From an uncultured Gammaproteobacteria bacterium (GTDB taxonomy: Bacteria; Patescibacteriota; Patescibacteriia; 2-01-FULL-39-33): 64,000 nt of DNA. Where the stretch lies: the NCBI GenBank assembly GCA_964573235.1, contig CAZNIV010000001.1, positions 3,709 through 67,708 of the forward strand, in the 5' to 3' direction. Below are positions 9,833-32,291 of the stretch, in pieces (the stretch's first letter is position 1; each line of letters opens with the position of its first letter). The position numbers and the translations under genes are program-made. The notes under the pieces were generated by a model. It was not told where the DNA came from. It saw only the letters and a list, made by a program, of their open reading frames with translations, and searched no databases.

Positions 9833-9867
9833 AAATTTTCAATTATTTCTAAACCTTACTTAATTAA

Positions 9868-10953: not shown

Positions 10954-12008
10954 AAATTTATAATTAAATTATCTAAAATAGTTCTAGGATTAATACTATT
11001 TCTGAGCCACCCACGAGCTTGCTCAATATACTCCATTATACCTTTTATTTTAATAAAAGAAAAATTACCCACCTGTTTTTCTAAAACCCCCAAATATTGT
11101 GAATTTACCACTAATTGTTCACTATCCCCAAGAAGTAACATCAAATCACGCAACGCCACTTGCCAATTTTCGAGCATCAACTCCATCGCCCCTACTACAT
11201 TTTCTTCATCAAAATTTTTGACTTCTTTTTCTGACCAAGATAAACGCTCACCCACCGGCAAGGCTAAAACTTCAAAAAAACTATCAATATGCGCTAAATA
11301 CTTTTCTAATTTATGTGGTTCATGCCAATAATCAATCGCTACACCCGGACGCCCATGCGACAAGTGCGCCAAATAATCGGCTTTATCTAAACCTAAGCCT
11401 TTATAAATCAAATAAGCTGAAATTTTCTTTTTTTCTACCGGCAGAAATTTAATCACTTGGCAACGCGATACAATCGTAGTCGGAATTTTTTTAATATCAT
11501 CGGTAATAAAAATAATTACCGTTTTTGCCGTTGGCTCTTCTACGGTTTTAAGTAACGCATTAGCCGCATTAACATTAACGCGTTCTGCTTCTGGAATAAT
11601 AGCGATTTTATAACTACCCAAAAAAGATGATTGCTGTAATTGTAAACGCAAATCGCGAATTTGCTCCACTGAGACATCGCGTTTTAATTTATCCGTTTTT
11701 TCATCCGTCGCTCGTTCTACTAAAAACATATCCGGATAAATACCTTTTTTAAGTGCCTGACAACTATGACAAACTCCACACGGTTTTTTACCAGCAATCA
11801 AAGCCTCTTTCGGATTATGTTGACAAATAATAGCACTAGCGAACTGTTTGGCTAGAGTTAATTTACCCAATCCCCTAGCTCCGCAAAAAATATAAGCTTG
11901 GGCTACCTTATTATTTTTCAAAGTCAAATCTAAAAATTCTACCGCCTGCTCTTGGCCGCAAATATCCCAATAATGATCAGCGATTTTAATATCAAAACTT
12001 TTTCTCAT
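10950..12008 (-). CDS. holB: DNA polymerase III delta' subunit
   Basis: Degenerate P-loop GARGLGKLT, a zinc module CGVCHSCQ, and an SRC motif. Confidence 0.7.
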   Translation of the reverse strand: MRKSFDIKIADHYWDICGQEQAVEFLDLTLKNNKVAQAYIFCGARGLGKLTLAKQFASAIICQHNPKEALIAGKKPCGVCHSCQALKKGIYPDMFLVERATDEKTDKLKRDVSVEQIRDLRLQLQQSSFLGSYKIAIIPEAERVNVNAANALLKTVEEPTAKTVIIFITDDIKKIPTTIVSRCQVIKFLPVEKKKISAYLIYKGLGLDKADYLAHLSHGRPGVAIDYWHEPHKLEKYLAHIDSFFEVLALPVGERLSWSEKEVKNFDEENVVGAMELMLENWQVALRDLMLLLGDSEQLVVNSQYLGVLEKQVGNFSFIKIKGIMEYIEQARGWLRNSINPRTILDNLIINL

Positions 12009-12017
12009 GACTATTTT

Positions 12018-13130
12018 TTATTTTAACAAACGCGCTAAAATAATTTTTGCGGTCTTTTCCCAAGAAAAATCCTTTACTCTCTCCAATCCCTTGATAATCA
12101 ATTCCTTCCGCTTTACTTCGTCCGCTAACAATTCCGCAATCTTTTCCGCTAAATCTTTTTCACTCTTCGCGTCGGCCAATACCGCCGCCACACCTGCCAC
12201 TTCTTGATGTGGATTTATATTTGAAGTCACCACCGGCACCCCACAAGCCATCGCTTCTAAAATTGGAATACCAAAACCTTCATACAGCGTAGGAAATAAA
12301 AATATCACCGCCGAACTCATGATAATTGGCAAATGTTCTTTTTTAACATAACCCAATAACAAAATGCGATTTTCTAATTTATAATCCGCAATTTTTTGCT
12401 TAATATTATGCAATTCATTACCATCACCACCTGCTAAAACCAACTTTAACTGACTATTGCTTTTGGCTAATATGTTAAACGCTTCCACCATACGAATCAC
12501 ATTTTTTTTACGCTCTATACGACCAACATATAATAGATAAGGCGTGGTAATACCATAATAATGCAATACATCAGCCGATTGATTACTTTGCTTATTATAT
12601 TGACTAGCGTCAAAACCCAAAGGGGCCACCGTAATTTTATCAGGCAAAATATTATAAAGTTTAACTATTTCCTGTTTAGAAAATTCTGAAACAGTTAAAA
12701 TAATATCTGCCCGACGTTTAATGCGCCACATCGTTAATTCATGATACCAATACTGAATTCTTTTATATAATTCCGGAAAGCGCTTAAAACCAACATCGTG
12801 AACCGTTACTGCCACTTTAATCTTTTTTGATAAAAATAAAAATGGAATCGTATGCGCCGGAACAAATAAAACATCCGGGGGATTCAATAATAATTCCCAC
12901 CATAACCTAATTTGCGTCCACAAATATTTTGGCAACCAAACTAAATGTTTTTCTAAAAAATTAACCGGACAAATTTCTAACCCACCAGTCAACGCTTCAC
13001 CTGTATATAGTAAAAACTTAACTTCTGCCGGAGCCATTTTTTTTAATTGCTCAATAACGTGATAAGAATACCACTCTACTCCGGTTTTGATTGGCTTATT
13101 GGCGCGAGAGGCATCAATCCCGATCAACAT
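12018..13130 (-). CDS. Glycosyltransferase family 4 (GT-B, retaining)
   Basis: C-terminal EGFGIPILEAMACGVPVV motif typical of GT4. Confidence 0.75.
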   Translation of the reverse strand: MLIGIDASRANKPIKTGVEWYSYHVIEQLKKMAPAEVKFLLYTGEALTGGLEICPVNFLEKHLVWLPKYLWTQIRLWWELLLNPPDVLFVPAHTIPFLFLSKKIKVAVTVHDVGFKRFPELYKRIQYWYHELTMWRIKRRADIILTVSEFSKQEIVKLYNILPDKITVAPLGFDASQYNKQSNQSADVLHYYGITTPYLLYVGRIERKKNVIRMVEAFNILAKSNSQLKLVLAGGDGNELHNIKQKIADYKLENRILLLGYVKKEHLPIIMSSAVIFLFPTLYEGFGIPILEAMACGVPVVTSNINPHQEVAGVAAVLADAKSEKDLAEKIAELLADEVKRKELIIKGLERVKDFSWEKTAKIILARLLK

Positions 13131-13134
13131 AAGG

Positions 13135-14157
13135 TTATTTAGTAGCTAAAATACTGCGCTTATAGCTTTCAAGATTTTCTAAAGCAATACCAGTGCCACG
13201 CGCTACACAATATAAAGCGTCATCAGCCACATAAGCAGAAAGACCGGTGGCTTGAGTAATTAATTTATCTATATTGCGCAACAAAGAAGATCCACCCGAC
13301 ATCACGATACCTTTATCAATTACATCAGCTGCCAACTCTGGCGGAGTACGATGTAAAACACCCTTAACCGCATTAGCAATGCCTTCTAAATCTGATTGTA
13401 ACGCCTCAGTTACATCATCTGATGACACTACAATAGTTTTTGGCAAACCCGATATCATATCGCGACCACGCACATTCATATACATTTTTTCTTCTAAATA
13501 CAAAGCGGAACCAATATTCTTTTTAATATCTTCAGCGGTAATTTCACCAATCGCCAAATTATACTTACGACGAATATATTCCATGATTGCCATATCAAAA
13601 CGATTACCACCAATACGCACCGAAGCTGAGCAAACAATGCCACCCAAGGCCAAAACCGCAATTTCTGAAGTACCACCACCAATATCAATAATCATATTGC
13701 CGGAAGCTGAGCCAATCGGAATATTAGCGCCAATCGCTGCTACAATTGGTTCTTTAATAATATAAGCCGCTTTAGCGCCAGCCGCAATGGTTGCATCGAT
13801 AACGGCACGACGCTCAGTAGAAGTAATACCATCTGGCACTGCTACCATCACCTCGGGACGAAAAATTCTTACCCCACCCAAAGCTTTATTGATAAAATAA
13901 CGCAACATTGCCTCAGTTGTTTTATAATCCGCAATCACACCCTCTTTTAGCGGCCTCTTAGCAATAATCGTATCCGGAGTACGTCCAATCATTTCTTTAG
14001 CTTCTACGCCAACTGCAATAATCTTTTTATCTGCCACCGAAATCGCCACCACTGACGGTTCATTAATTACAACACCTTTTTTGGGCAAATAAACCAAAAC
14101 ATTAGTAGTTCCAAGGTCAATACCGATTTTCTTTTGAAACAAGGAAAAAATAGACAT
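13135..14157 (-). CDS. mreB: Actin-like protein MreB (paralog 2, Mbl-like)
   Basis: IGIDLGTTNV and IDIGGGTSEIAVLALGG; full-length MreB homology; more canonical than paralog 1. Confidence 0.85.
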   Translation of the reverse strand: MSIFSLFQKKIGIDLGTTNVLVYLPKKGVVINEPSVVAISVADKKIIAVGVEAKEMIGRTPDTIIAKRPLKEGVIADYKTTEAMLRYFINKALGGVRIFRPEVMVAVPDGITSTERRAVIDATIAAGAKAAYIIKEPIVAAIGANIPIGSASGNMIIDIGGGTSEIAVLALGGIVCSASVRIGGNRFDMAIMEYIRRKYNLAIGEITAEDIKKNIGSALYLEEKMYMNVRGRDMISGLPKTIVVSSDDVTEALQSDLEGIANAVKGVLHRTPPELAADVIDKGIVMSGGSSLLRNIDKLITQATGLSAYVADDALYCVARGTGIALENLESYKRSILATK

Positions 14158-19568: not shown

Positions 19569-21152
19569 TTAAATCAAACTCGTGCCCGTCATTTCTTTTG
19601 GCTGAGGCAAATTCATTACCTTTAAAATGGTTGGCGCCACATCAGATAAAATACCCGATGGCTGAACCAAACTCAAATCGGAACTTGGAGCATCCATGCC
19701 ACCCATCGTCTTGCCTTCCCACTCTTTGCCCACCACTACAAACGGCACCGGATAACTGCTATGTTCTTTATCTATTTCACCAGATTGCAAGTTAATTAAC
19801 TCTTCAGCATTGCCATGATCGGCGGTTAAAAACAAAATGCCATTTTTGGCCAAAACTAGTTCGCTGATTTGCTTAACGCAACCATCTACCACTTCGCACG
19901 CCTTAATGGTCGCTTTTAAATCCCCAGTATGCGCCACCATATCCAAATTAGCAAAATTAATCACGATAAAATCATATTTATCAGCCATAATGGCTTCACA
20001 AGTTTTTTTAGCAATTTCTTTTACTGACATTTCTGGCTTTTCAGCGTAAGAACTTACACGAGGTGACGGCACCAAAATCCTATCTTCACCTTTGAACTCT
20101 TCTTCTAAGCCACCATTAAAAAAGAAAGTGACATGGGCATATTTTTCTGTTTCGGCAATATGTAGTTGTGTTAAACCGGCGTCAGATATTACCTTAGCCA
20201 ATGGATCATGAATCAAATCTTGTTTAAAAGCCACCTCCACTGGCAAGTCTTTTTCATATTCCGTCATCGCCACAAAATACAAATCCTTCAAATATTCGCG
20301 CGGAAATTTTTCAAAACCAGGCAACACAAAAGCCTTAGTAATTTCACGAGCACGATCAGAACGATAATTAAAGAAAATTATGGAGTCGCCAGATTTAACT
20401 TGCGCCACCGGCTTGCCTTTTTTAGTAATGACTACCGGTATAAATTCTTCATCATAAACTTTTTTATCATAAGAAGCCTGAACCGCTTCGGTGGCGTCAT
20501 CAAAATAGTTGGTGGCCTTGCCTTGAGTCATAGCATCATAAGTTAAAGCAATACGCTCCCAATGATTATCGCGATCCATGGCATAAAAACGGCCAGACAA
20601 AGTGGCAATTTGCCCAATCTTATCTTTTTCTATTTTATGCTTAATTTTATTGATCATATCGATGCCAGAATTATACGGCATATCGCGACCATCCAAAAAA
20701 GCATGAATATAAACTCGATTAAATTTTTGCTTTTCACATAAATCTAATAAAGCAAATAAATGATTAAGCGAGCTATGCACCCCACCGGAAGAAGTTAAGC
20801 CCATAATATGCAAATCTCCTTTAGTTTTTTTAGCATGAGTAATAGCCACGACAAATTTTTCATTAACAAAAAAATCGCCACCAGAAATGGCGTGATCAAT
20901 TAATGGTAAATTCTGATAAAGCAACTTTCCTGATCCTAAATTTAAATGACCAACCTCGGAATTACCAAACTCACCCCATGGCAAACCAACAGACTCACCC
21001 GAAGCCTGAAGGGTTAAAGCGGGATAGCTTTTTAATAAATTATTCAGAGCTGGAGTATTAGCCGAAGAAATGGCATTAGAACGTGATAGCGGAGCCACTC
21101 CCCAACCATCAAGAATCAATAATACTACTGGCTTTAATCTCTTATTGGTCAT
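19569..21152 (-). CDS. gpmI: 2,3-bisphosphoglycerate-independent phosphoglycerate mutase (iPGM), copy A
   Basis: LLILDGWG; catalytic Ser motif GNSEVGHLNLG; full-length alkaline-phosphatase-superfamily iPGM. Confidence 0.85.
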   Translation of the reverse strand: MTNKRLKPVVLLILDGWGVAPLSRSNAISSANTPALNNLLKSYPALTLQASGESVGLPWGEFGNSEVGHLNLGSGKLLYQNLPLIDHAISGGDFFVNEKFVVAITHAKKTKGDLHIMGLTSSGGVHSSLNHLFALLDLCEKQKFNRVYIHAFLDGRDMPYNSGIDMINKIKHKIEKDKIGQIATLSGRFYAMDRDNHWERIALTYDAMTQGKATNYFDDATEAVQASYDKKVYDEEFIPVVITKKGKPVAQVKSGDSIIFFNYRSDRAREITKAFVLPGFEKFPREYLKDLYFVAMTEYEKDLPVEVAFKQDLIHDPLAKVISDAGLTQLHIAETEKYAHVTFFFNGGLEEEFKGEDRILVPSPRVSSYAEKPEMSVKEIAKKTCEAIMADKYDFIVINFANLDMVAHTGDLKATIKACEVVDGCVKQISELVLAKNGILFLTADHGNAEELINLQSGEIDKEHSSYPVPFVVVGKEWEGKTMGGMDAPSSDLSLVQPSGILSDVAPTILKVMNLPQPKEMTGTSLI

Positions 21153-21154
21153 AA

Positions 21155-22714
21155 CTACAATAAACTATCTTTAGTCATTAATGGATCTTTTTTAACTCCC
21201 ATTAATTTTAATATCGTTGGCGCCACATTACCCAGGCAACCGCCAGTTTTTAACTGAGTTTTATGATTAAAATCACGACCCACTAAAATAAATGGCACTT
21301 GATTACCTGTGTGTTCCGTAATAATTTCACCGGTTTCTAAATTAAGCATGTACTCTAGATTACCATGATCAGCGGTAATAATCAATGCACCCTTAGCTTT
21401 AAGCACGGCTTGTAACACTTTTTTGACATACTTGTCAACTGCCTCTGCCGCCTTAATTCCAGCCTTAAAATTACCCGTATGCCCTACCATATCCGGACAA
21501 GCAAAATTAGCGGCAATAAAATCATACTTGCGAAGCGCGCCTAAAATTTTAGTCGTAATTTGAGCCGTAGACATCACTGGCTTCAAATCATAAGAATCAA
21601 CCATTGGCGATGGCACCATTACCCGATCCTCGCCATCAATTTTATCAGCATAACCACCATTAAAAAAGTAAGTCATATGAGCATACTTTTCACTCTCGGC
21701 AATATAAATTTGTTTTTTATCTTTTAACGCTAACGGCAAAGTTTCTCTTACATCCTCTGATGGATAAGCAGTATAGATAGTATCCAGATCAGGACCAAAA
21801 TCAGTCATGGCTACAAACAATAAATCTTGCAAAACTTTCTTACGCTTCGGCGCCCCTAAATTTTTACCCTCAAAATCTTTCTGCACAAAAAGCTTCGTTA
21901 ATTGGCGCGCGCGATCAGAACGCAAATTGAAATACACCAGCGCATCTTTATCACTAATACGGGGCAACATCTTATCACCATCATACATAATTACCGGCTC
22001 AATAAATTCATCAGTCACATTGGCATTATACGCTCTAGTAATACCTTCTTGCGGACTATTCCCTTTATGGCCAACCCCAAGAACCATCGCTTCGTAAGCC
22101 TTATTATTCCTATCCCAAGATTTTTTTCGATCCATAGCATAAAAACGACCAATTATAGTGGCAATTTTTTCTTTTGGGGTTAAAAATCTTTCTAAGGCCT
22201 CTACCGCCTTTAAAGCCGAGCGCGGTGGAGAATCACGACCATCAGTAAATAAGTGTAAATAAATATTACCCGTTGTAACGCGCCTAAAAACCATCAAAAG
22301 AGCCATTAAATGATCTGGACTACTGTGTGGACTTTGATCAGTAGACAATAAACCCATTAAATGAATGTTAGATTTATTATTTTCAACATGCTTAATCGCC
22401 GCCAAAAAAGCCGGGTTTTTAAAAAATTCACCCGTGCTAATTTGCTTAGAAATTTTTACCACATCCTGATCCACAATTCGGCCAGCGCCAAGATTAAGAT
22501 GACCCGCTTCAGAATTACCCACCTGCCCTAACGGCAAACCAACAGGCAAACCAGAAGCTTCCAAAGTAACCCATGGGTATTTACGATACAAACCATTGAT
22601 CGTTGGGGTTTTGGCCATGAAAATCGCATTAGACGCATCCGATTTCCCCAATCCCCAACCATCAAGAATTAGTAAAACAACTTTTTTATAAATTGGCGCT
22701 TTAGCTTTAGCCAT
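21155..22714 (-). CDS. gpmI: 2,3-bisphosphoglycerate-independent phosphoglycerate mutase (iPGM), divergent copy B
   Basis: LLILDGWG; GNSEAGHLNLG; roughly 40% identity to copy A; placed 2 nt upstream of copy A. Confidence 0.8.
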   Translation of the reverse strand: MAKAKAPIYKKVVLLILDGWGLGKSDASNAIFMAKTPTINGLYRKYPWVTLEASGLPVGLPLGQVGNSEAGHLNLGAGRIVDQDVVKISKQISTGEFFKNPAFLAAIKHVENNKSNIHLMGLLSTDQSPHSSPDHLMALLMVFRRVTTGNIYLHLFTDGRDSPPRSALKAVEALERFLTPKEKIATIIGRFYAMDRKKSWDRNNKAYEAMVLGVGHKGNSPQEGITRAYNANVTDEFIEPVIMYDGDKMLPRISDKDALVYFNLRSDRARQLTKLFVQKDFEGKNLGAPKRKKVLQDLLFVAMTDFGPDLDTIYTAYPSEDVRETLPLALKDKKQIYIAESEKYAHMTYFFNGGYADKIDGEDRVMVPSPMVDSYDLKPVMSTAQITTKILGALRKYDFIAANFACPDMVGHTGNFKAGIKAAEAVDKYVKKVLQAVLKAKGALIITADHGNLEYMLNLETGEIITEHTGNQVPFILVGRDFNHKTQLKTGGCLGNVAPTILKLMGVKKDPLMTKDSLL

Positions 22715-22720
22715 TTTTTA

Positions 22721-23977
22721 TTAAGCTAATTTTAATTCTTCAGCAATTTCCATCAAACGATTATATTTAGTCACCCTTTCAGCGCGACATAAAGAACCAG
22801 TCTTAATATATTCAGCGTTAGAAGCGACTGCTAAATCAGCGATAAAATCATCGACAGTTTCACCTGAACGATGAGAAACAGCGATACTATATTTATGTTT
22901 CTGTGCTAATTTCATACATTCAACAGTTTCGGAAACGGTACCAATTTGATTTAACTTAATCAAAATAGAATTAGCAATATGCTTTTTAATACCTTCAGCT
23001 AAAATTTTTGGATTGGTCACAAACAAATCATCACCAACCAAGCCAATTTTATCGCCCAAAACTTTAGTCAACATAGCCCAACCAGTCCAATCACTTTCAC
23101 CTAAACCATCTTCCAAAGTTTCAATTGGATATTTTTCAGTCCAACCCTTATACATTTCTACCATTTCAGCCGAAGTGCGCTGTTTGCCATCCGCCTTCAT
23201 GTCATAAATATCATTTTCATGAAATTCGGAAGCGGCCGCATCAATAGAAATACGCACATCAGAACCAAATTTATAACCAGCAGTTTCTACGGCTTTAGCA
23301 ATAGTTTGCAAGGCCATTTCATTACCCGCTAATTTAGGTGCATAACCACCCTCGTCACCAACAGTAATTGGAAAACCATCCGCTTTTAAAATCTTTTTTA
23401 AGGTATGAAAAATCTCCGCGCCACAACGAACCGCTTCGTGAATATTTGTTTGTTGCGGAGTAACCATAAATTCCTGAATATCAATAGACCAACCGGCATG
23501 AGCGCCACCATTCATAATATTCATCATTGGCTTAGGAAACTTCCAACCATCCAATTTCTTCCAATATTTTTCTCTCAAATAAGCGTATAATGGCTTTTTA
23601 CTAGCAATCGCTGCGGCACGACAAACGGCCAAAGACACACCCAACATCGCATTGGCTCCAAGATTGCCCTTATTATCCGTGTTATCCAACTCAATCATTA
23701 AGGCATCAATCTCTTTTTGCTTTTTAGGATTCATTCCAATTAAGCGTGGAGCGATAATATTATTAACATTAGAAACTGCTTTTAAAACACCCAAACCATT
23801 GTAACGCGCTTTATCACCGTCACGCAATTCTAATGCTTCACGGCTACCAGTAGAGGCTCCCGAAGGCACACCAGCCCAAGCTTTGATTTTATTAGACAAA
23901 ACTACTTCTACTTCTACCGTTGGGTTGCCACGAGAATCTAAAATTTCTCTGGCAGTAATCTTTGCAATGGTTGCCAT
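22721..23977 (-). CDS. eno: Enolase
   Basis: 418 aa; canonical enolase motifs (SIDIQEFM, IKLNQIGT, SHRSGETED-like SHRSGETVD). Confidence 0.9.
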   Translation of the reverse strand: MATIAKITAREILDSRGNPTVEVEVVLSNKIKAWAGVPSGASTGSREALELRDGDKARYNGLGVLKAVSNVNNIIAPRLIGMNPKKQKEIDALMIELDNTDNKGNLGANAMLGVSLAVCRAAAIASKKPLYAYLREKYWKKLDGWKFPKPMMNIMNGGAHAGWSIDIQEFMVTPQQTNIHEAVRCGAEIFHTLKKILKADGFPITVGDEGGYAPKLAGNEMALQTIAKAVETAGYKFGSDVRISIDAAASEFHENDIYDMKADGKQRTSAEMVEMYKGWTEKYPIETLEDGLGESDWTGWAMLTKVLGDKIGLVGDDLFVTNPKILAEGIKKHIANSILIKLNQIGTVSETVECMKLAQKHKYSIAVSHRSGETVDDFIADLAVASNAEYIKTGSLCRAERVTKYNRLMEIAEELKLA

Positions 23978-23991
23978 ACTTTATATTTTAT

Positions 23992-24798
23992 TTATTTTAT
24001 TTCATAAGTAACTGAAACCTCAACTGTAATATCCTGAGTTCCAGACTCAATCACGGCCGTTGGCGCAACTGCCTTATCTACACTGCCCGCCATCATGTCC
24101 GAGCGATAATAATTAATTGGACTTGGTACATAACCACTACCCTCAGTAAAGCTAACTACAGAGCCCAATTTAACGCCAAGCTGTTTAGCTAATTCATTAG
24201 CCTTGTCTTTAGCTTGCTTGATTGCCAAATTTCTCGCTTGCACTTTTAACTCAGTTGGATCATCAATGGTAAATTGTGGACCATTAACGCTATTAGCACC
24301 CAAAGATCCAGCATTGGTTAAAATATCACCGATATTATCAAAATTTCTTACCTTTACTTCAACATTTTGACTAACTGTATAGCCAATAATTTTAGATTGA
24401 TTATTAGACCAATCATACCTTGGCTGAATAGAATAATTATCAGTCTTAATATCTTTAGCCTCAACTTTAAATTGAGATTTAACTGTGTCCATAATCTTAT
24501 TCATCTTGGTATTATTGTCTTTTTGCGCCTCAGTTACCGTAGATTTTTCAGAAATCACACCAATATTAATAACCGCTACGTCTGGAGTAGCTGAAACCTT
24601 GCCTGTACCATTAAACGCGATTTGATTTTTATAATCTGGAGTTTTACCAATGAAATCATAAGATTTAAAAGAATTACGAGCTAATCCTAATAAATAAAAC
24701 CCTAGGACCACCAAAACTAAAATTGCAAAAGCCCCGGCAACTTTATGACCAATAGCACAGCCACAAACGCCATTAGAACAACATTTTTCCTCGTTCAT
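23992..24798 (-). CDS. SIMPL-domain (DUF541) protein with N-terminal Cys cluster and one TM helix
   Basis: MNEEKCCSNGVCGCAIGH followed by a TM helix, then an SIMPL-like ectodomain. Confidence 0.55.
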   Translation of the reverse strand: MNEEKCCSNGVCGCAIGHKVAGAFAILVLVVLGFYLLGLARNSFKSYDFIGKTPDYKNQIAFNGTGKVSATPDVAVINIGVISEKSTVTEAQKDNNTKMNKIMDTVKSQFKVEAKDIKTDNYSIQPRYDWSNNQSKIIGYTVSQNVEVKVRNFDNIGDILTNAGSLGANSVNGPQFTIDDPTELKVQARNLAIKQAKDKANELAKQLGVKLGSVVSFTEGSGYVPSPINYYRSDMMAGSVDKAVAPTAVIESGTQDITVEVSVTYEIK

Positions 24799-24813
24799 AT
24801 TTTTTAGTTATTA

Positions 24814-26004
24814 CTAAAACTTAATTAATTTAGATAAACCCGGTAATTCTTTACCTTCTAAAAACTCTAACATCGCTCCGCCACCAGTAGAAATAAAATT
24901 GAATTTCTTTTCTAACCCCATTTTGCGAATCATTTGCACTGTTTCACCACCACCAACAATCTTCTCCCCCTTGGCTTTGGCTAACAATTTAATAATTGCC
25001 TCGGTGCCTTTTGTAAAAGTTGGATTTTCAATCAATCCCATCGGGCCATTCCAAACAATCATCTTAGCTTGTTTAATGATACTAGCATAAAGCTGGATAG
25101 TATCCGGACCAATATCTAGAATTATTTCATTTTCTTTTACTTTTGCCAAGGCACCCAATCGCCCATGACTACTTTTAAAACTTTTAGCCATTAAACCATC
25201 AACTGGCACCACTAATTTATTTTCCGTTAGCTCAATGTTTTTAATTTCTTCTTCCATGTCTTTTTCTACTAGCGACTTACCTACCGAAACGCCCTTAATC
25301 AACAAAACGGTATTGGCCAAAGCGCCACCAAGCAAAATTTTGCTCGCCACCTTTAAAAAATTCTTAATTACCTTAATTTTAGTGGAAATTTTTGCCCCAC
25401 CAATAATCGCCACCATCGGCTTTTTGGGTTTATATAATGCCTTAGATAAATTAACCACCTCTGATTCTAACAATAAACCGGCATAACTAGGCAAAAATTC
25501 CTGAATCGTAGAAACCGAAGCTTGGGCGCGATGATCAACCGCAAAAGCGTCATTAACATAAATATCAGCCAAACTAGCTAATTGTTTCGCAAACTCCTGA
25601 TCAGCTTGCTCTTCACGCGCATCAAAACGAATATTTTCTAACATCAAAATATCACCATTTTTCATTTTAGCGATCAATCTATTGGTTTCTTCTCCAATAA
25701 TTACTGAACTCTTTTTAACTTTTTTCTTTAATAAATTGGATAATCTTTTAACCACCGGTGTTAAGCGCAAATCTTCTACTACTTTACTATCTGGTCGCCC
25801 CAAGTGGGCCATCAATATTAATTTTGCCCCTTTTTTAGCCAAAAATTTAAGTGTCGGCAAGGTTTTTACAATGCGATAATCTTCACTTTTGCCCACCTTT
25901 CCGTCTTTAGTTAGTGGCACATTAAAATCCACGCGAATCAATACGCGCTTCCCTTTCCAATTTTTAACTTGTTTTATAGACTTTATTTTCATAGCGTTTA
26001 ACAT
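24814..26004 (-). CDS. pgk: Phosphoglycerate kinase
   Basis: 396 aa; RVDFNVP, GGGA, GGGETV motifs. Confidence 0.9.
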   Translation of the reverse strand: MLNAMKIKSIKQVKNWKGKRVLIRVDFNVPLTKDGKVGKSEDYRIVKTLPTLKFLAKKGAKLILMAHLGRPDSKVVEDLRLTPVVKRLSNLLKKKVKKSSVIIGEETNRLIAKMKNGDILMLENIRFDAREEQADQEFAKQLASLADIYVNDAFAVDHRAQASVSTIQEFLPSYAGLLLESEVVNLSKALYKPKKPMVAIIGGAKISTKIKVIKNFLKVASKILLGGALANTVLLIKGVSVGKSLVEKDMEEEIKNIELTENKLVVPVDGLMAKSFKSSHGRLGALAKVKENEIILDIGPDTIQLYASIIKQAKMIVWNGPMGLIENPTFTKGTEAIIKLLAKAKGEKIVGGGETVQMIRKMGLEKKFNFISTGGGAMLEFLEGKELPGLSKLIKF

Positions 26005-26035
26005 TTTATCATAAATTTAACCAAAAACGAAAGGG

Positions 26036-26293
26036 TTACTTATCCCCCTCAATCTCTCTTAAAATCCAACTATGCCCTGTAATCTTATTAATTTTTAACA
26101 CTATCCCCTCAGCTAAAGTACCTTTAGATAACATATCCACATTAAATTTAACATTTTCTGGTAACACTTCTTCGCCATGTTCTACGATGGAACCCAAATC
26201 TACTGTCGCCGATTTAACGTTATTTAAACTATTTTTTTCAGCATGCTCTAAAATAGTTTTAAAAATAATATCTGCTAAGTGAAAATCGTGCAT
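26036..26293 (-). CDS. hypA: HypA-like nickel metallochaperone N-domain protein lacking the zinc-finger domain
   Basis: Probable start MHDFHL (internal Met of the track ORF 26036..26329). It aligns to the HypA N-terminal domain (MHE...KHGAKRVT..V.LKIGAFS...LAFCF..V..GSVAEG..L). No CxxC...CxxC follows, and the next gene starts 31 nt downstream. Confidence 0.5.
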   Translation of the reverse strand: MHDFHLADIIFKTILEHAEKNSLNNVKSATVDLGSIVEHGEEVLPENVKFNVDMLSKGTLAEGIVLKINKITGHSWILREIEGDK

Positions 26294-26304
26294 AATAATT
26301 TTAA

Positions 26305-27591
26305 TTAATGAGTAGCACAAGAAATGCAAGGATCATAAGCACGAATCAAAGCGCGGATTTTTAGTGATCGTTTTTTGGCATCCATCTTAATCACATCTGG
26401 TAAATAAGTTTTAATATCTTCTTCTAGATTACGCAGAAAAGAACAAGTTGGTGTAATGATATCACAATTAGTGATAAAACCATTAGCGTCAATTTCATAA
26501 TGATGATACAAGGTGCCTCGAGGAGCTTCTACTGCCGCCGCCCCAATACATAATTTACCAAGTGGATTAGCCCCGGCCACGATACCCAGTTCTGCTAACC
26601 GACTAGCTTCGGGCTTAATTTCTGCCACCAAGTGTGTTAATAATTTACCCACCTCTTCTACGGCATGCAAAACCTCAATTGCTTGCGCGGTAATATTACA
26701 GAAACTATTGTATTGTGGTAATTCCCAATTTAAACTTTTTAAAACTCCTGCCGCCAAAGGATTTAGTTTTTGATGATTCAAATTTATTCTAGCTAACGCG
26801 CCAACCATAAACGGTTCGCCCTTTAGTGTAGCTGATTTAGCATGACGATACGGTTCTTCAATTTCTTTAATATTCTTAGCAAAGTTAACCGCTGGCACTT
26901 TTTTAAAACCACCCAAATTCAAATCACCATCATAAATAGCATAATTATGATCGGCCGATAACGCCACATGTTTAGTGGTACGAGAAAATTTAGGGTATTT
27001 AATTTTTAACACTAAGTGAATTAAGGATAAGGAGTCTTTCAATACCGCTTGATATTGACCCAAAAGCACTTGCAATTCCTCTTTATTTGGTGTCACCTTA
27101 AATCCACCCACTTCGGAATTAATCGGATGAATAGCGCGACCACCAATCACTTCAATAATCTTTAGCGCCCAATCACGAACGCGCATCGCACTTTGAGTTT
27201 CTTTAGGATATTGTTTAATTAATTGCAAATCATTTTCAATATCAAAAAAATCAGCTAACGATAAAAAAAATAAATGAAGCGCATGTGAGTGAATAATTTG
27301 CGCCATCGACATAGCCTGTCTGAGCTTAACCGTTTGTTCACTAACTTTAATATCTAAAGCATTTTCAATTGCCTTAATTGAGGTTAAATTATGCACCACC
27401 GGACAAATACCACAAATACGCGCCGTGACAATTGGCGCCTCTGTAAAATGACGACCAACCAAAATCCCCTCGATCAACCTCGTGCCCTCAGCCGTTAACA
27501 ACTTAGCCGATTTAACATCGCCATTCATAATCTCAGCCACAAAATCAGTGTGACCTTCCATTTTACCAATATGATTGATTTGGATTTTCAT
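26305..27591 (-). CDS. hydA: [NiFe]-hydrogenase large (alpha) subunit, group 3 (3b-like)
   Basis: L1 motif RICGICPVVH near the N-terminus; L2 motif DPCISCATH is the extreme C-terminus, so there is no cleavable extension; 428 aa. Confidence 0.85.
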   Translation of the reverse strand: MKIQINHIGKMEGHTDFVAEIMNGDVKSAKLLTAEGTRLIEGILVGRHFTEAPIVTARICGICPVVHNLTSIKAIENALDIKVSEQTVKLRQAMSMAQIIHSHALHLFFLSLADFFDIENDLQLIKQYPKETQSAMRVRDWALKIIEVIGGRAIHPINSEVGGFKVTPNKEELQVLLGQYQAVLKDSLSLIHLVLKIKYPKFSRTTKHVALSADHNYAIYDGDLNLGGFKKVPAVNFAKNIKEIEEPYRHAKSATLKGEPFMVGALARINLNHQKLNPLAAGVLKSLNWELPQYNSFCNITAQAIEVLHAVEEVGKLLTHLVAEIKPEASRLAELGIVAGANPLGKLCIGAAAVEAPRGTLYHHYEIDANGFITNCDIITPTCSFLRNLEEDIKTYLPDVIKMDAKKRSLKIRALIRAYDPCISCATH

Positions 27592-27594
27592 ATC

Positions 27595-27849
27595 TTAAAT
27601 AAAAATTTTAATAACTAAAAGTCCAACCACTATTCCCAACACATTAAACAACATATCCAAACTACTTTCTTTTAAATCATTAGTACGCATAAACTGATCA
27701 CTAATTTCTTTAGTCAAACCAACCGCCAAAGAAAATAAAACCGCCGCCAAATAACTACCAGAAATCGCATAAACCGTACTTGACATCATTGAAGAAATTA
27801 AAAAATGCGCTACCTTGTCATAATTATTTGTCAGCCTTAGGTAAAACAT
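27595..27849 (-). CDS. Small (84 aa) two-TM membrane protein encoded between the hydrogenase small and large subunit genes
   Basis: It fills the 232-nt gap between the delta and alpha genes. It has two hydrophobic helices. The start may be an internal Met, which would reduce the 26-nt overlap with the delta gene. Confidence 0.4.
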   Translation of the reverse strand: MFYLRLTNNYDKVAHFLISSMMSSTVYAISGSYLAAVLFSLAVGLTKEISDQFMRTNDLKESSLDMLFNVLGIVVGLLVIKIFI

Positions 27850-28654
27850 TTATTTTCTTTTTAATCACTTTTTTAGTTGCCTTCTGTTCTTTAGACCATT
27901 CTTGCATGATTGTATCTTTAGCGCCAAATACTTCCATTACGCGATCAACTTGTTTTTTTGTAAATTTAGACAATAAATAAGCCATCAAATTACTCACTTG
28001 CGCGCCCTCAAATAACCCGCGACAACCCCAACAAGCCTGTTTACTCTTCAAGCACACTGCTTCACAGCCACCCAAGGTTATTGGCCCTAAGCAAATTTGA
28101 CCTTTTTGCAATAAACACTCATAACCTAATTTTTGACATTCGTAACATACCGGATTTTGCGAAATTCTTGGTTTACGCCCAGCCAATAACTGATAACCAA
28201 TTTCCATAAACTCTTTACCGGTAATTGGGCAGCCAGGAATAGTCAAATCTACTTTCACAAAATTATCCACTTCTTTGATATCTGGATTAGGCACCTTAAT
28301 ATCATGATAAACTTGTTTAATCGTCTTTTTCTTATCGCCATAGTTTTTCATCTCCCAAACACCGCCTAGCGCCGCGCAATTGCCCAGCACTACCAAAAAA
28401 TCAGATTGCTGACGTAATAATTTTAATAGTTTAATATTTTCTTCTGTCACCGGATTACCTTCCACAAAACAAATATCAAACCGACGCGCCGTCATTGGCT
28501 CATCTTCAATTAATCTAAATTCTTCCACCTCAAAATTTTTCAACCAACTTAAAAATCTTGGACCTTCATCCAACATAGCAAATTGGCACCCTTCACAAGA
28601 GGTTAAGCCCACAATAGCAATTTTTAATTTTGTAGTTTTATTTTTTGCCTTCAT
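27824..28654 (-). CDS. hydD: [NiFe]-hydrogenase small (delta) subunit, group 3
   Basis: SCEGCQ proximal-cluster motif, GNCAALGG, IPGCPI, and a C-terminal Cys-rich region for the medial/distal clusters. Confidence 0.8.
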   Translation of the reverse strand: MKAKNKTTKLKIAIVGLTSCEGCQFAMLDEGPRFLSWLKNFEVEEFRLIEDEPMTARRFDICFVEGNPVTEENIKLLKLLRQQSDFLVVLGNCAALGGVWEMKNYGDKKKTIKQVYHDIKVPNPDIKEVDNFVKVDLTIPGCPITGKEFMEIGYQLLAGRKPRISQNPVCYECQKLGYECLLQKGQICLGPITLGGCEAVCLKSKQACWGCRGLFEGAQVSNLMAYLLSKFTKKQVDRVMEVFGAKDTIMQEWSKEQKATKKVIKKKINVLPKADK

Positions 28655-28692: not shown

Positions 28693-29952
28693 CTAAATTT
28701 TCACCTTCAACTCTTCTTCAAGCATCTCATAGCTTAAATCCCCTTTAAATAGTGCCCATTTTTCCATTTTTTTCTCCTGATCATAGAATTTATTCTCATA
28801 AATTTCATAATCGGCGCGATACTTTTCTGGCGTTAAATTAAGCATGATCGCATTAGCGCCAGCCATAAACGCCTTATGCCGAAATTGCTCACCATAAAGC
28901 GTTTCCATGGCAGTAGTAACGGGTATTCTGGCTTTAGGTAAAACTAAGCGAATAGTGGCAATAATTTTTAACATCATTTCTTCTGGTAAAATTATCTCAT
29001 CAACCAACGGGGTATTTTTCGATGGCACTAATGGCCCAAATGACGGCATGAAAGCATTAAACCTTTTTAGCGTCAAAATATCTACCGCTAAATCAGTTAC
29101 TGATTGCTTAGGTAAGCCAGCGATAAAACCAGTGGCAATGGTATAACCTAATTTTAAACAACCATCAATTAATGCACGGCGATCGGCACCATCTTCGCCT
29201 TGATGCAAATCAGTATACAATCTATCATTCATTTCTTCGTATCTAATTAAAACGCCATTAGCACCAGCTTTTTTTAATTGCTGATAAACTTCCAAAGAGC
29301 GACCACCAATACTCAAATATAAAAACGCGCGAAAACGCTTTTTAATTTCTGTCACTAAACTTATTAAATCAGCGTCAGAATAAGTATAATCTTCCCCGGA
29401 TTGCAATACTAAAATTTTATAACCTTTATCCTCTACCGCTTCTCGCACCGCTTCAATAATTTCTTCGCTCGTCATACGATAACGCTTTACCGCCTGATTA
29501 CCACATCTAATGCCACAATACTGACAATTACTAGCGCAATAATTAGAAAACTCAATCAAACCATGCACGCAAATATGATCTTTAATACTAGTTTTTCTGG
29601 TAATATTGGCCTCAGAATACAACTCATTTAAATCAGCTTCGGATTTTAAGGTTAATAAATATTCAATATCTGCCTGTTGCAATTTGTCTGACTTAGCTTT
29701 AGCTAAGATATTTTTTAATTCTTGATTTTGACTGGGCTCGGCCAATGGATAAGCTTTTAGCAACGCAAAAATTTCTTCTGCCTCTGAAGCGGAAATTTTT
29801 TTCAGTAAAAAATCATTGGTAAATAAAACCCAGTCACCGATCTGTAAGTCTTCTGGCGTTAACATTTTTACTTCTTTTTCTCGGCCACTCACTTCTAATT
29901 TGGCCGAAACGCCAGAAACCGACAAGACCTTTGCCGGTAAAGTCAAACACAT
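28693..29952 (-). CDS. Fusion protein: N-terminal HypC/HupF-like domain (MCLTLP...) + HydE/HmdB/BioB-like radical SAM domain
   Basis: Residues 1-70 align with HypC (MCLTLPAKV...GDWVLFTNDF versus E. coli MCIGVPGQI...GQWVLVHVGF). Residues ~120-419 carry CASNCQYCG (CxxxCxxC), GLIEFSNYC, KRYRMT and LQSGED, strongly resembling HydE as remembered. One uninterrupted ORF. Confidence 0.8.
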   Translation of the reverse strand: MCLTLPAKVLSVSGVSAKLEVSGREKEVKMLTPEDLQIGDWVLFTNDFLLKKISASEAEEIFALLKAYPLAEPSQNQELKNILAKAKSDKLQQADIEYLLTLKSEADLNELYSEANITRKTSIKDHICVHGLIEFSNYCASNCQYCGIRCGNQAVKRYRMTSEEIIEAVREAVEDKGYKILVLQSGEDYTYSDADLISLVTEIKKRFRAFLYLSIGGRSLEVYQQLKKAGANGVLIRYEEMNDRLYTDLHQGEDGADRRALIDGCLKLGYTIATGFIAGLPKQSVTDLAVDILTLKRFNAFMPSFGPLVPSKNTPLVDEIILPEEMMLKIIATIRLVLPKARIPVTTAMETLYGEQFRHKAFMAGANAIMLNLTPEKYRADYEIYENKFYDQEKKMEKWALFKGDLSYEMLEEELKVKI

Positions 29953-29961
29953 AAATTTAAA

Positions 29962-30108
29962 TTACATTCTGTTTTTACGAAAAATGGTAGCCAAACCCAA
30001 AACGATCAAAGCAATTGGCCAAATCAAATCCCAATTGATCGCTGGCACTACGCCCAAATACTTGAGCAAGAAAACCAAACCCACAACTACCAATGCTACT
30101 CCCAACAT
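29962..30108 (-). CDS. Candidate small (48 aa) hydrophobic membrane peptide between hydG and the hypC-rSAM fusion (not in the supplied ORF track)
   Basis: Manual translation gives MLGVALVVVGLVFLLKYLGVVPAINWDLIWPIALIVLGLATIFRKNRM. The 168-nt gap in this otherwise tightly packed operon has no other explanation. Confidence 0.3.
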   Translation of the reverse strand: MLGVALVVVGLVFLLKYLGVVPAINWDLIWPIALIVLGLATIFRKNRM

Positions 30109-30120
30109 ATATTTAAAAAA

Positions 30121-30942
30121 TTAATTAAATTTAATATAATCTTTAATTTCACTCCAGGTGAATACCGGGCCATCTTTACATACATAATACGGGCCAATAG
30201 CGCAATGTTGGCAAACACCAACCCCGCAATACATTTTCTTTTCTAATGACACATAAATATTTTCATCTTTTATGCCTTTGGCCTGCAATTGTTCTACCAC
30301 AAACTTATACATCACTGGCGGACCAACAATAATGGCAATAGAATTAGAAGTAATAACGCGTTTAGCCAATAAATTAGTAATTAAGCCTTTATCCCCTTTC
30401 CAATCTTTTTCTGGCTTATCTAAAGTTAAATTAAACTCGCTATGCTTTTTCCAGTAATCATGCTCAGATTTAAAAAGTATTGAGTGCTGATTTAAGCAGC
30501 CATAAAAAATTTGCATCACCGTATTATCTAATCGGCCGGCCATATAATCAACAATAATTGGCCTAAGTGGAATAAAACCACAACCGCCACCAATTACAAT
30601 CAACGGTAAATCTTTAGCCTTTTCCACGTCAAAACCGTTGCCAAACGGGCCACGAATATCTACCTCATCACCTACTATTAAATTACTGAATTTATGCGTC
30701 AATAAACCCACGTCACGAATAGCTAACTCAAAATAATTTTTTGCCTCAAACGGCGACGAACAAATACTAATCGGACACTCGCCCCAACCCGGCAAACCCA
30801 CTTGCATAAATTGGCCATGAATAAAAGCAAAGTTTTTTTGCTGCTTAGTATCAATAAATTTTAAACGCCACAAAATTGTATCGGGCGACAAGCACTCAAC
30901 GGCAACAATTTTAGCTTTTTGCGGTTGATAAATATTGATCAT
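30121..30942 (-). CDS. hydG: Sulfhydrogenase/3b-hydrogenase gamma-like subunit (FAD/NAD(P)-binding oxidoreductase with C-terminal 2Fe-2S; PyrK/AsrB-like)
   Basis: FNR-like fold with IVIGGGCGFIPLRPI and a C-terminal CGVGVCQHC...C cluster motif. Confidence 0.75.
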   Translation of the reverse strand: MINIYQPQKAKIVAVECLSPDTILWRLKFIDTKQQKNFAFIHGQFMQVGLPGWGECPISICSSPFEAKNYFELAIRDVGLLTHKFSNLIVGDEVDIRGPFGNGFDVEKAKDLPLIVIGGGCGFIPLRPIIVDYMAGRLDNTVMQIFYGCLNQHSILFKSEHDYWKKHSEFNLTLDKPEKDWKGDKGLITNLLAKRVITSNSIAIIVGPPVMYKFVVEQLQAKGIKDENIYVSLEKKMYCGVGVCQHCAIGPYYVCKDGPVFTWSEIKDYIKFN

Positions 30943-31904
30943 AGATTTTTAAGCACCTCATTGATTTTAATTCCCACTGGGCAAACATTACTGCAACGAT
31001 TACAACTAACACAACCCGGCAAGCCGTATTCTTTAGGAATGCGCACAAATTTATGGGTATACCAAAAATAAATCTTTTGTTTAGCGGTATCTAGCGATTT
31101 ATGCCCGCCAGCCACCAAAGAAAAATCATTATAAAAGCAATTACCCCACTTGCGAACGCGACCGGTATTATTCACATCATTTTTATCTTCTAAATCAAAG
31201 CAAAAACAAGTCGGGCATACAATAGAACACTTACCACAAGCGATGCAAGTTTTGCCCAATTCTTCCCAAATTGGCTGATCAAAAGACTGATCAACTTTCT
31301 TTTTTAACAATAACATGCGCTTATCTTGGCCTTCTTCGGCAATCGGCCCAGCAAATTCTACGTGCTGATATTTTTTGGCACCACGCTTTTCTAAAAATAA
31401 CTGACCTTTTTCTGATCCGGAATATAAATCATAACCATCATTAACTCTGGCCATCAAAAAGATATCAAACACTAAGTGCTCTAAAAAGTTTTCTTCCCAA
31501 TTATGGGTAAAGACTTTATATTTTTTAAATTCCTCGGGCGCGCCCGTACCTAATCCCACTATTAAAGTACGACGACGACGTTCTTGATAATATTTATCCT
31601 TAGAAAATACCTGCTCCCACAAAGCCAACGCCTTTAAATCCAAAACATTAATGCCCACCAAAGAAAATTTTGGCCAAACACGAGTTTCTTCTTTTAAATT
31701 ACCGCCACTAATGCCAAATAAGCGTTCCTCAGCCGGAATTAGCCATTGCTTAAAAGAATTAACTGGCATTTCGGCCGACCAATCAATATTTTTTAAATCT
31801 GTTACTGGCGCTACCTTAAGTACACCATCAATTCTTTGAGGTGCTATAATCTGATATTCTTTAGAAATGGCTAAAATTAAATTTTGTAATTCGGTTTTAT
31901 TCAT
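30939..31904 (-). CDS. hydB: Sulfhydrogenase/3b-hydrogenase beta-like subunit (4Fe-4S ferredoxin domain protein; AsrA-like)
   Basis: CIACGKCSIVCP and CVSCNRCSNVCP motifs; overlaps hydG by 4 nt. Confidence 0.7.
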   Translation of the reverse strand: MNKTELQNLILAISKEYQIIAPQRIDGVLKVAPVTDLKNIDWSAEMPVNSFKQWLIPAEERLFGISGGNLKEETRVWPKFSLVGINVLDLKALALWEQVFSKDKYYQERRRRTLIVGLGTGAPEEFKKYKVFTHNWEENFLEHLVFDIFLMARVNDGYDLYSGSEKGQLFLEKRGAKKYQHVEFAGPIAEEGQDKRMLLLKKKVDQSFDQPIWEELGKTCIACGKCSIVCPTCFCFDLEDKNDVNNTGRVRKWGNCFYNDFSLVAGGHKSLDTAKQKIYFWYTHKFVRIPKEYGLPGCVSCNRCSNVCPVGIKINEVLKNL

Positions 31905-31967: not shown

Positions 31968-32291
31968 CTACTTATTTAAATTTAAAATAAACCAATACCC
32001 ACCACCAGTTGCGTAACGCGGACCAGGCCCCTCTTTAACTAGGATATACTCTTTTTCTGAACCTAAATACTCTCTTACACTATCCACTTGACTTGGTATG
32101 GCATCAATTAAAATATCTCCGCTCTCCCCCAAAGGCAAATGTCCTTGATTAATCCATTCTTTTAATTCAAATACCAAAGTACCTAAGCCCGTTAAAATTT
32201 TTAACTCTTCTCGTAATTTAATAACGGCTTCTTTAATTCTATTCTCCTCTGATAATTCCGGTCCAGTAACCTCTCTTTTAAATGGCTTCAT
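31968..32291 (-). CDS. Hypothetical 107-aa protein upstream of the hydrogenase operon
   Basis: ORF with unbiased, coding-like composition; no family recognised. Confidence 0.4.
   Translation of the reverse strand: MKPFKREVTGPELSEENRIKEAVIKLREELKILTGLGTLVFELKEWINQGHLPLGESGDILIDAIPSQVDSVREYLGSEKEYILVKEGPGPRYATGGGYWFILNLNK

Follow-up and report, generated by a model that had tools for sequence, protein, structure and literature searches.

The 64,000-nt stretch analysed here (positions 3,709 to 67,708 of contig CAZNIV010000001.1; called the window, meaning the whole stretch, whose numbering is used for all positions) carries a gene in which a HypC domain is fused to a HydE-type radical S-adenosylmethionine (SAM) enzyme, and this gene lies inside a [NiFe]-hydrogenase operon. 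Its open reading frame (ORF) occupies 28693–29952 on the minus strand, starts with ATG and encodes 419 amino acids (aa) plus a stop codon, as seen from the ORF itself and from Pfam and NCBIfam matches. A preliminary description had given the same position and length, which we could confirm, while the strand had to be corrected to minus; the peptide strings quoted there (MCLTLPAKVLSVSG, GDWVLFTNDF, GLIEFSNYC, CASNCQYCG, KRYRMT and LQSGED) are all present in the ORF.

The HypC domain comprises aa 1–65 (29758–29952, minus strand), as delimited by Pfam, a match in the Protein Data Bank (PDB), the DSSP assignment of an AlphaFold2 model and an alignment with standalone HypC proteins. It begins with MCLTLP, i.e. 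Met1-Cys2, and the HypC/HupF N-terminus with Cys2 that had been recognised before is borne out by a HupF_HypC (PF01455) score of 56.0 bits (gathering threshold 28.5) covering 65 of 65 profile positions. In a PDB sequence search aa 1–63 align to the HypC from Thermococcus kodakarensis (2z1c, E = 9e-7), and the domain also matches the solved HypC 3vyr by sequence. With the NCBIfam HypC model TIGR00074 the window protein scored 39.3 bits, under the cutoff of 48, and relatives lie above this cutoff with 56.7 and 49.1 bits. The AlphaFold2 model, built from 97 family members (mean predicted local distance difference test, pLDDT, 91.3; predicted TM-score 0.90), shows the domain as a five-strand barrel (strands 6–13, 16–21, 24–29, 41–44 and 48–53) plus a C-terminal helix (55–65).

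The remainder of the protein (aa 84–419, 28696–29703, minus strand) is a HydE-type radical SAM (βα)8 domain, assigned by its match to Thermotoga maritima HydE (TmHydE; E = 3e-54 over aa 84–394 in the PDB sequence search) and by Foldseek. The complete radical SAM domain expected from the preliminary description is indeed present, with Pfam Radical_SAM at aa 133–287 (62.3 bits), BATS at aa 308–389 (38.5 bits) and a CX3CX2C cluster motif (C139, C143 and C146; 29515–29538, minus strand) that aligns to C63/C67/C70 of TmHydE. The HydE equivalog model TIGR03956 gave 251.3 bits, narrowly under its cutoff of 254.6, which two relatives (L003 and L005) exceed with 309.9 and 283.7 bits; all other NCBIfam models scored lower (PylB 146.7, BioB 91.8, ThiH 79.4, HmdB 57.5 and HydG 56.1). 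From an earlier suggested resemblance to HydE and HmdB rather than BioB, the HydE part stands and the HmdB part does not, as HmdB scores below PylB, BioB and ThiH. The fold agrees with this, since the top ten Foldseek matches are all TmHydE entries (e.g. 7o1p and 3ciw; root mean square deviation 1.4 Å over about 310 columns, target TM-score 0.85–0.89) and PylB, HydG and BioB rank behind them. We therefore rejected BioB, PylB or HmdB as the identity of the domain, as both scores and fold favour HydE. As had been noted, cysteines of a C-terminal auxiliary cluster were not found: C311 of TmHydE corresponds to Y390, and the C-terminal tail contains no Cys. The linker turned out to be shorter than the approximately 50 aa assumed before and covers only about aa 66–83 (29704–29757, minus strand), because the alignment with TmHydE already starts at aa 84 and aa 84–126 align to the N-terminal helices of HydE. 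Close to this junction the pLDDT drops to 73 (block aa 61–70).

The fusion gene sits between the genes for the gamma and the small subunit of a group-3b-like [NiFe]-hydrogenase, a placement that had been proposed and that Pfam and NCBIfam support for the flanking genes. On the minus strand the order is the beta subunit (30939–31904; Fer4_22, ShyB/HydB-like), the gamma subunit with FAD/NAD-binding and Fe-S domains (30121–30942), an ORF for a 48-aa membrane peptide (29962–30108), the fusion, the small (delta) subunit (27824–28654; Oxidored_q6, sulfhydrogenase delta-like), an 84-aa hydrophobic ORF with weak VanZ/YfiM-like matches only (27595–27849), the large (alpha) subunit (26305–27591), a truncated HypA (26036–26329; probable start Met at 26293, 85 aa) and a terminator-like hairpin plus T-run at the operon end (26028–26051), which matches the consensus, although total counts of such elements are not above chance. 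The intergenic gaps measure 0–38 nt except in the stretch with the small peptide gene, so co-transcription of the operon, and with it the co-expression of fusion and hydrogenase that had been predicted, is very likely. All four subunits are present, together with the L1 and L2 Ni-Fe cysteine motifs of the large subunit, RxCGxC (RICGIC) and DPCISCATH. The best models for the large subunit are ShyA/HydA, far under the equivalog cutoffs (234.7 against 700 bits), and for this reason we call the enzyme only 3b-like. The large subunit terminates at the His of DPCISCATH without a cleavable C-terminal extension, and the same holds for 35 of the 45 linked large subunits (loci L007–L086, group-3b-like), so that no proteolytic step should be needed for them; a 2025 review lists extension-less enzymes for groups 2b, 2d, 4c and 4e only (PMC12134894). 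In the short HypA the MHD nickel motif at the N-terminus is retained, while the Zn-finger insert of about 34 residues is missing in its entirety, as is every cysteine; this reduction to a nickel-binding domain of 84–86 aa is found in the window and in two relatives (L001 and L007). The 48-aa peptide, a LiaI/LiaF-TM-like double membrane helix encoded 9 nt upstream of the fusion, is kept at the same position in four related loci (L001, L088, L091 and L092).

The distribution of the fusion was followed by database searches and by scanning GTDB genomes, one for each species; the scan found 102 relatives, of which 80 loci were kept. At least 120 clusters at the 90% level carry the fusion; the best 120 database matches are 43–58% identical over 100% of the length, and all full-length best matches bear both PF01455 and PF04055. 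In the databases these relatives are named 'HydE', 'radical SAM protein' or 'biotin synthase', and one entry (P0361) is a 111-aa fragment 99% identical to the N-terminus of the window protein. Most fusion genomes in the species scan are Patescibacteria (Buchanan-, Falkow-, Moran-, Berkel-, Jorgensen- and Peregrinibacteria), with further members in anammox Planctomycetota (Ca. Kuenenia, Brocadiaceae, Ca. Wunengus), in Deltaproteobacteria/Syntrophales/Thermodesulfobacteriota and in Ca. Methylomirabilis. The N-terminal 135 aa spanning the junction yielded only about 12 representatives at 50% clustering among 1.84 billion proteins, which makes this a compact and specific family. An assembly chimera, the artefact that the preliminary description had considered, was rejected, as both domains occur in all full-length matches and the same fusion in 80 species genomes: the fusion is a conserved family. 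In a neighbor-joining tree the fusions form a clade separate from canonical HydE (bootstrap 90/100).

To compare the active sites, the TmHydE residues were mapped onto the window protein and 39 canonical HydEs, a sample biased towards Thermotogae and Firmicutes, were compared with 33 fusions. C63/67/70, V105, Q107, L157, R159, E161, M224, T269 and M291 are identical in both groups, and so is K309 apart from a single fusion out of 33, which has Arg there. All HydE residues described for binding and processing the HydG product are thereby conserved in the fusion. The S3 site is rewritten: R54 is Arg in 39/39 canonical HydEs and His in 33/33 fusions, R155 is replaced by Gly (39/39 against 33/33) and T134 by Phe or Tyr (39/39 against 33/33). 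Position H52, which is His, Tyr, Phe or Gln in canonical HydE, is Cys in all 33 fusions, so that a family-specific C128-x-H130 motif on barrel strand β1 (29563–29571, minus strand) replaces H52-x-R54 of the S3 product site. This motif is present in 79 of 79 sequences across the genomes, in which the key residues including CX3CX2C are invariant as well. Both groups share 67 positions with a conservation of 90% or more; the residue is the same at 61 of them, and the six that differ are R54H, A132F, R155G, G226S, N264R and L305I. HydE is proposed to join Fe(I) units into a dimer, and the S3 residues touch the cyanide ligands of these units; one of the residues is required for [FeFe] maturation (PMC11826987, PMC10114646).

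A similar picture of conservation and change was obtained for the HypC domain. Cys2 is present in all 77 fusions possessing an N-terminus. The equivalent of His51 of Escherichia coli HypC is Thr45 in the window protein and T, S, A, N or I across the fusions, and standalone HypCs in the fusion loci retain this His, which is a proposed iron ligand in the HypC-HypD complex and whose mutation abolishes activity (PMC12134894). Because the S3 site fails we do not regard the fusion as a bona fide member of the HydE equivalog, and without His51 it does not count as a typical HypC; it is a conserved variant in which the two are combined. One would expect these changes at S3 and His51 of a protein that retains radical chemistry on an Fe(CO)x(CN)y-cysteinate and whose product is neither coupled to a dimer for HydF nor built up on HypD. 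A covariation analysis (mutual information with average product correction; 175 sequences, effective number 113) returned as top pairs a single clique, H126/Y212/W399 against F/F/Y. Since this clique reflects one clade split, the pairs are phylogenetically confounded and unusable as evidence for contacts.

For the gene neighbourhoods all ORFs from 82 loci were clustered and mapped within ±10 kb of the fusion in each genome; the neighbourhood searches covered about 1.3 Mb and about 6000 ORFs from 82–86 loci, and the results refer to these neighbourhoods. A survey for the same fusion next to hydrogenases had been proposed in the preliminary description, and it revealed a [NiFe] large subunit in 45 of the 82 loci and a small subunit in 44, both of which are lower bounds because many loci are truncated contigs. 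The linked hydrogenases are 3b-, 3c- and group 1/2-like. The enzyme is group 1/2-like and adjoins histidine kinases in Planctomycetota and others, one locus has a Vhu/Mvh-like (L076) and another a group-1-like hydrogenase (L041). In the loci that are not 3b-like the gene order is fusion-HydG-HypA-HypB, sometimes with the protease HycI.

A canonical HydG adjoins the fusion in 51 of 82 loci (tblastn). A HydG neighbour directly downstream of the fusion reached 468.7 bits with TIGR03955 (cutoff 312) and an E-value of 1.9e-171 against the solved HydG from T. italicus, and all 45 called HydG copies keep both CX3CX2C and the C-terminal CX2CX22C. The latter is the motif of the HydG cluster on which the Fe(CO)2(CN) synthon assembles. 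In one locus (L081) HypC, HydE and HydG form a single continuous polypeptide of 881 aa, and a second, divergent triple fusion of 906 aa has the same order with a HydG part that is only 49% identical. Another locus (L020) has an adjacent truncated or gapped HydG, and two further close HydGs also adjoin fusions. HydGs about 61% identical to the CPR (candidate phyla radiation) type occur under the label 'Candidatus Micrarchaeota archaeon' (DPANN archaea; P0215 and P0230), which could reflect gene transfer or mis-binning. In two Ca. Kuenenia loci (L056 and L080) the type I restriction-modification genes hsdM and hsdR lie between the fusion and hypA-hypB, at the place where related Planctomycetota have HydG, and neither locus has a HydG within reach.

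When genuine E. coli proteins served as queries, the 6000 ORFs gave 17 matches for HypA, 8 for HypB, 4 for HycI and 45 for HypC domains. For HypD, HypE and HypF there was no match by phmmer, tblastn or signature motifs in the 1.3 Mb of neighbourhoods, and motifs of HydA and HydF were likewise absent from the neighbouring ORFs. Thus, of the Hyp system only the part for nickel insertion accompanies the fusion and HydG in these neighbourhoods; the Fe(CN)2CO half never does, and the remaining [FeFe] components do not either. Standalone HypC genes adjoin the fusion in at least nine loci; those upstream of it in L032, L036, L038, L039 and L066 carry His-rich inserts and tails (e.g. HEHK... and ...GHTHAHSH) that E. 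coli HypC does not have. In many relatives one or two small SAM-methyltransferase-like genes (170–185 aa, protein-lysine methyltransferase/DOT1-like) flank the fusion and the large subunit (L012 with 9340–9852 plus a downstream copy, L010, L011, L014 and L016–L019); they do not occur in the window.

From sequence and gene context we lean towards reading the fusion as a dedicated [NiFe]-hydrogenase maturase that joins a HypC-type iron carrier covalently to a radical SAM enzyme of the HydE type and that would serve a tyrosine-derived Fe-CO/CN route. That such a protein might provide a non-canonical radical route to the Fe-CO/CN unit had been suggested before, and the HydE identity, the adjacency of HydG in 51 of 82 loci, the triple fusions and the linkage to [NiFe] genes support and considerably strengthen this suggestion. 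HydG would cleave tyrosine and produce a cysteinate-Fe(CO)x(CN)y synthon of the complex-B type, which the HydE domain would take into its conserved upper pocket, where the 5'-deoxyadenosyl radical would attack the sulfur and remove the cysteine backbone. In true HydE the Arg/Thr/Arg S3 site would then be the place where two Fe(I) units form a dimer destined for HydF, and in the fusion the rewritten S3 site (Cys128/His130, Gly233, Phe/Tyr212 and Arg342) might hold a mononuclear Fe-carbonyl-cyanide unit instead. This unit would be passed on to Cys2 of the attached HypC domain and placed into the large subunit's apo form, to which the truncated HypA, plus HypB where present, would add nickel last. 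HydG and the fusion would in this way replace HypD, HypE and HypF, and the CO ligand would be supplied anaerobically. We infer the substrate, the mononuclear capture, the transfer to Cys2, the replacement of HypDEF and a route to two cyanides and one CO. That HydG and the fusion make up a complete HypD/HypE/HypF-independent pathway, a natural hybrid of [FeFe] and [NiFe] maturation, is a bolder claim, to which we give somewhat less than even credence.

Several observations weigh against a HydG-dependent maturase, and the main weakness for this window is the subclass without HydG. HydG was not found in the 64 kb, nor were HypB, HypD, HypE, HypF and HycI (Pfam on size-selected ORFs; tblastn with the whole 64 kb), and apart from the window about eleven loci (L008, L010, L012, L016–L019, L021, L022 and L024) have the fusion in the operon and no HydG within 10 kb. 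On contigs of 235–509 kb from four window-type genomes there was no close HydG among the matches listed, which is suggestive of loss but not conclusive. Operons with and without HydG are interleaved within the window's clade, which implies repeated loss or relocation of HydG. Relaxed selection after such a loss was not seen, the fusion showing no faster evolution where HydG is absent (p = 0.25). For the window's subclass HydG must be either encoded elsewhere or dispensable, and a fusion acting alone is not explained by the model. HydG is also missing nearby in the cluster 5 subfamily, where the partners of the fusion are in some cases a standalone HypC plus a divergent hydrogenase and in others a DJ-1/PfpI protein, a 370-aa protein and a response regulator. 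At least eight loci have the fusion and no hydrogenase within 10 kb, and the absence of HypD, HypE, HypF, HydA and HydF refers to the neighbourhoods covered. The chemistry raises two further difficulties. The HydG product contains two CO and one CN and the [NiFe] site needs one CO and two CN, although HydG releases one extra cyanide per synthon, and HydE chemistry leaves a sulfide on the iron, which is superfluous for the [NiFe] site. The tyrosine-based route via HydG and a HydE-type enzyme is thus well motivated and entirely inferential, and it is weakest for the HydG-less subclass.

In the loci of the L005 type (L005 at 11393–13910, L031, L037, L046, L048, L052, L065 and L069) neither a hydrogenase nor HydG adjoins the fusion; in this subfamily the fusion is followed by DJ-1/PfpI, a conserved protein of about 370 aa and a response regulator. 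Neither the 370-aa protein nor the class III neighbour c13 has a match in Pfam, NCBIfam or PDB.

The fusion could also have an auxiliary role and, together with HydG, donate only CO or Fe-CO to a canonical HypCDEF system encoded elsewhere, with cyanide still coming from carbamoyl phosphate via HypE and HypF. An anaerobic CO source is an acknowledged gap of the canonical pathway (PMC12134894), standalone HypCs with an intact His51 adjoin the fusion in at least nine loci, and the larger genomes outside the CPR (Planctomycetota, Deltaproteobacteria) could carry hypCDEF beyond the ±10 kb covered. We nevertheless find this unlikely, as HypA, HypB and HycI cluster with the module and HypD, HypE and HypF never do, HydG yields CN as well as CO, the HypC domain of the fusion lacks the His51 implicated in the HypCD iron site, and CPR genomes are very small. 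A still less probable explanation is that HypC only directs the enzyme to the large subunit in its apo state (or to iron), with the radical SAM domain catalysing another, HydG-independent reaction, such as a modification of the large subunit or of cysteine-bound iron, the N-terminal Cys of HypC possibly being a sacrificial ligand. This would account for the catalytic residues being under undiminished constraint in the window class and cluster 5, both without HydG nearby, as well as for the rebuilt S3 site and the HydE score just below the equivalog cutoff. Against it stand the identity of all complex-B binding and processing residues of TmHydE, the adjacency of HydG as the dominant and ancestral-looking state, the existence of triple fusions and the interleaving of HydG-plus and HydG-less operons in the window's clade, which argues for the same function in both.

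That the protein is simply a HydE working with HydG for an [FeFe]-hydrogenase elsewhere, its HypC-like domain being incidental, would agree with the automatic annotation as HydE and HydG and with relatives that clear the HydE equivalog cutoff. We consider ordinary [FeFe] maturation very improbable, however: the fusion lies inside [NiFe] operons in 45 loci, motifs of HydA and HydF are missing from the 6000 neighbouring ORFs, the HypC domain has an invariant Cys2, and the Arg/Thr/Arg of S3 is replaced in 33 of 33 fusions (for the role of this site see PMC10114646). Nothing was found in favour of an artefact, be it an assembly chimera or a decaying pseudogene, and its chance is practically negligible given that the fusion recurs in at least 120 independent clusters at 90% and, across many studies, in 80 species genomes, and given an intact reading frame, invariant catalytic residues and a confident two-domain model.

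In line with the expectation that the fusion had not been described, full-text searches of the literature found no description of it, nor of HydG or HydE acting with a [NiFe] enzyme. Jaffe et al. (PMC7304191) do not mention radical SAM, HydE or HydG, and the 2025 review of [NiFe] cofactor biosynthesis (PMC12134894) treats six Hyp proteins as necessary, sees 'the most pressing' open question of [NiFe] maturation in where the CO ligand comes from under anaerobic conditions and mentions neither HydG nor radical SAM enzymes. If HydG and the fusion do make up the complete HypD/HypE/HypF-independent pathway, no enzymatic source of the [NiFe] CO ligand under anoxic conditions would have been identified before it, and the pathway would be widespread in Patescibacteria and present in anammox bacteria as well as in further anaerobes. 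If our reading of the fusion as a [NiFe] maturase holds true, it would connect the two main systems of hydrogenase maturation, so far treated as unrelated. It would also explain [NiFe] maturation in the tiny CPR genomes, correct a widespread mis-annotation as '[FeFe] maturases' or 'biotin synthase' and offer a three-gene route for heterologous [NiFe]-hydrogenase production. The fusion, HydG, the short HypA and the four-subunit hydrogenase form a concrete, cloneable gene set with which an alternative CO route can be tested, and the changed S3 site offers nature's own test of what decides whether HydE makes a mononuclear or a dinuclear product.

The window has 36% G+C, and besides the operon it contains cell-envelope and glycolysis genes typical of Patescibacteria. 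Searches of the window found no tRNA and no Rfam element, and scans for promoters and terminators did not exceed what chance would give. The hydrogenase operon is followed by genes for phosphoglycerate kinase, a SIMPL-domain protein, enolase and two tandem paralogues of the phosphoglycerate mutase iPGM (19569–26004), a glycolytic synteny common to several Buchananbacteria-like genomes (L001, L088 and L091). Two MreB paralogues (6430–7467 and 13135–14157), separated by 6 kb, are embedded among genes for the cell wall and for glycosyltransferases. Three very large ORFs of 1058–1213 aa are found at 49098–52727, 53981–57622 and 60791–63967, a 523-aa ORF at 47455–49026 has no Pfam match, and a 107-aa ORF directly upstream of the beta subunit (31968–32291) has no Pfam or NCBIfam match.

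Compared with HydE from T. maritima (PDB 3ciw and 7o1o) the fusion shares the (βα)8 fold, CX3CX2C, the complex-B pocket with its radical relay and HydG as the usual partner. It differs from HydE in its N-terminal HypC domain, its separate clade, the missing auxiliary-cluster cysteines and the rewritten S3 site (R54H, R155G, T134F/Y, H52C, N264R, A132F and G226S), and it is linked to [NiFe] and not [FeFe] genes, HydF and HydA not being found nearby. The fusion resembles PylB, BioB, ThiH and HmdB in being a radical SAM barrel with a BATS region, but their models score far lower than HydE (146.7, 91.8, 79.4 and 57.5 against 251.3 bits). With HypC/HybG/HupF (E. coli; T. kodakarensis 2z1c) it has in common the full Pfam match, Met-Cys2, the β-barrel plus C-terminal helix and the [NiFe] operon; unlike these proteins it is fused to an enzyme, has His51 replaced and is not accompanied by HypD in the window or the 86 loci.

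At the level of pathways, the proposed route would share with canonical HypCD-HypEF the presumed end product Fe(CN)2CO, the delivery to the apo large subunit by a Cys2 carrier and the subsequent insertion of nickel by HypA/HypB. It would differ in taking its ligands from tyrosine via HydG, in contrast to carbamoyl phosphate (through HypF and HypE) and, for CO, an unknown source, and in using a radical SAM barrel as scaffold in place of the [4Fe-4S] ATPase HypD. As in the HydG-HydE-HydF pathway to [2Fe]H, HydG and a HydE-type enzyme occur in tandem, and HydG is canonical with both Fe-S motifs; in contrast to that pathway, the neighbourhoods contain neither a HydF scaffold nor a HydA target, HypC would be the downstream carrier and the dimerisation site is altered. 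Finally, like HypX, which synthesises CO aerobically from N10-formyl-tetrahydrofolate (PMC12134894), the fusion module would be a dedicated enzymatic source of the [NiFe] CO ligand and then the second one, but the two are unrelated in fold and chemistry, with HypX found in aerobes and the fusion module in anaerobes.

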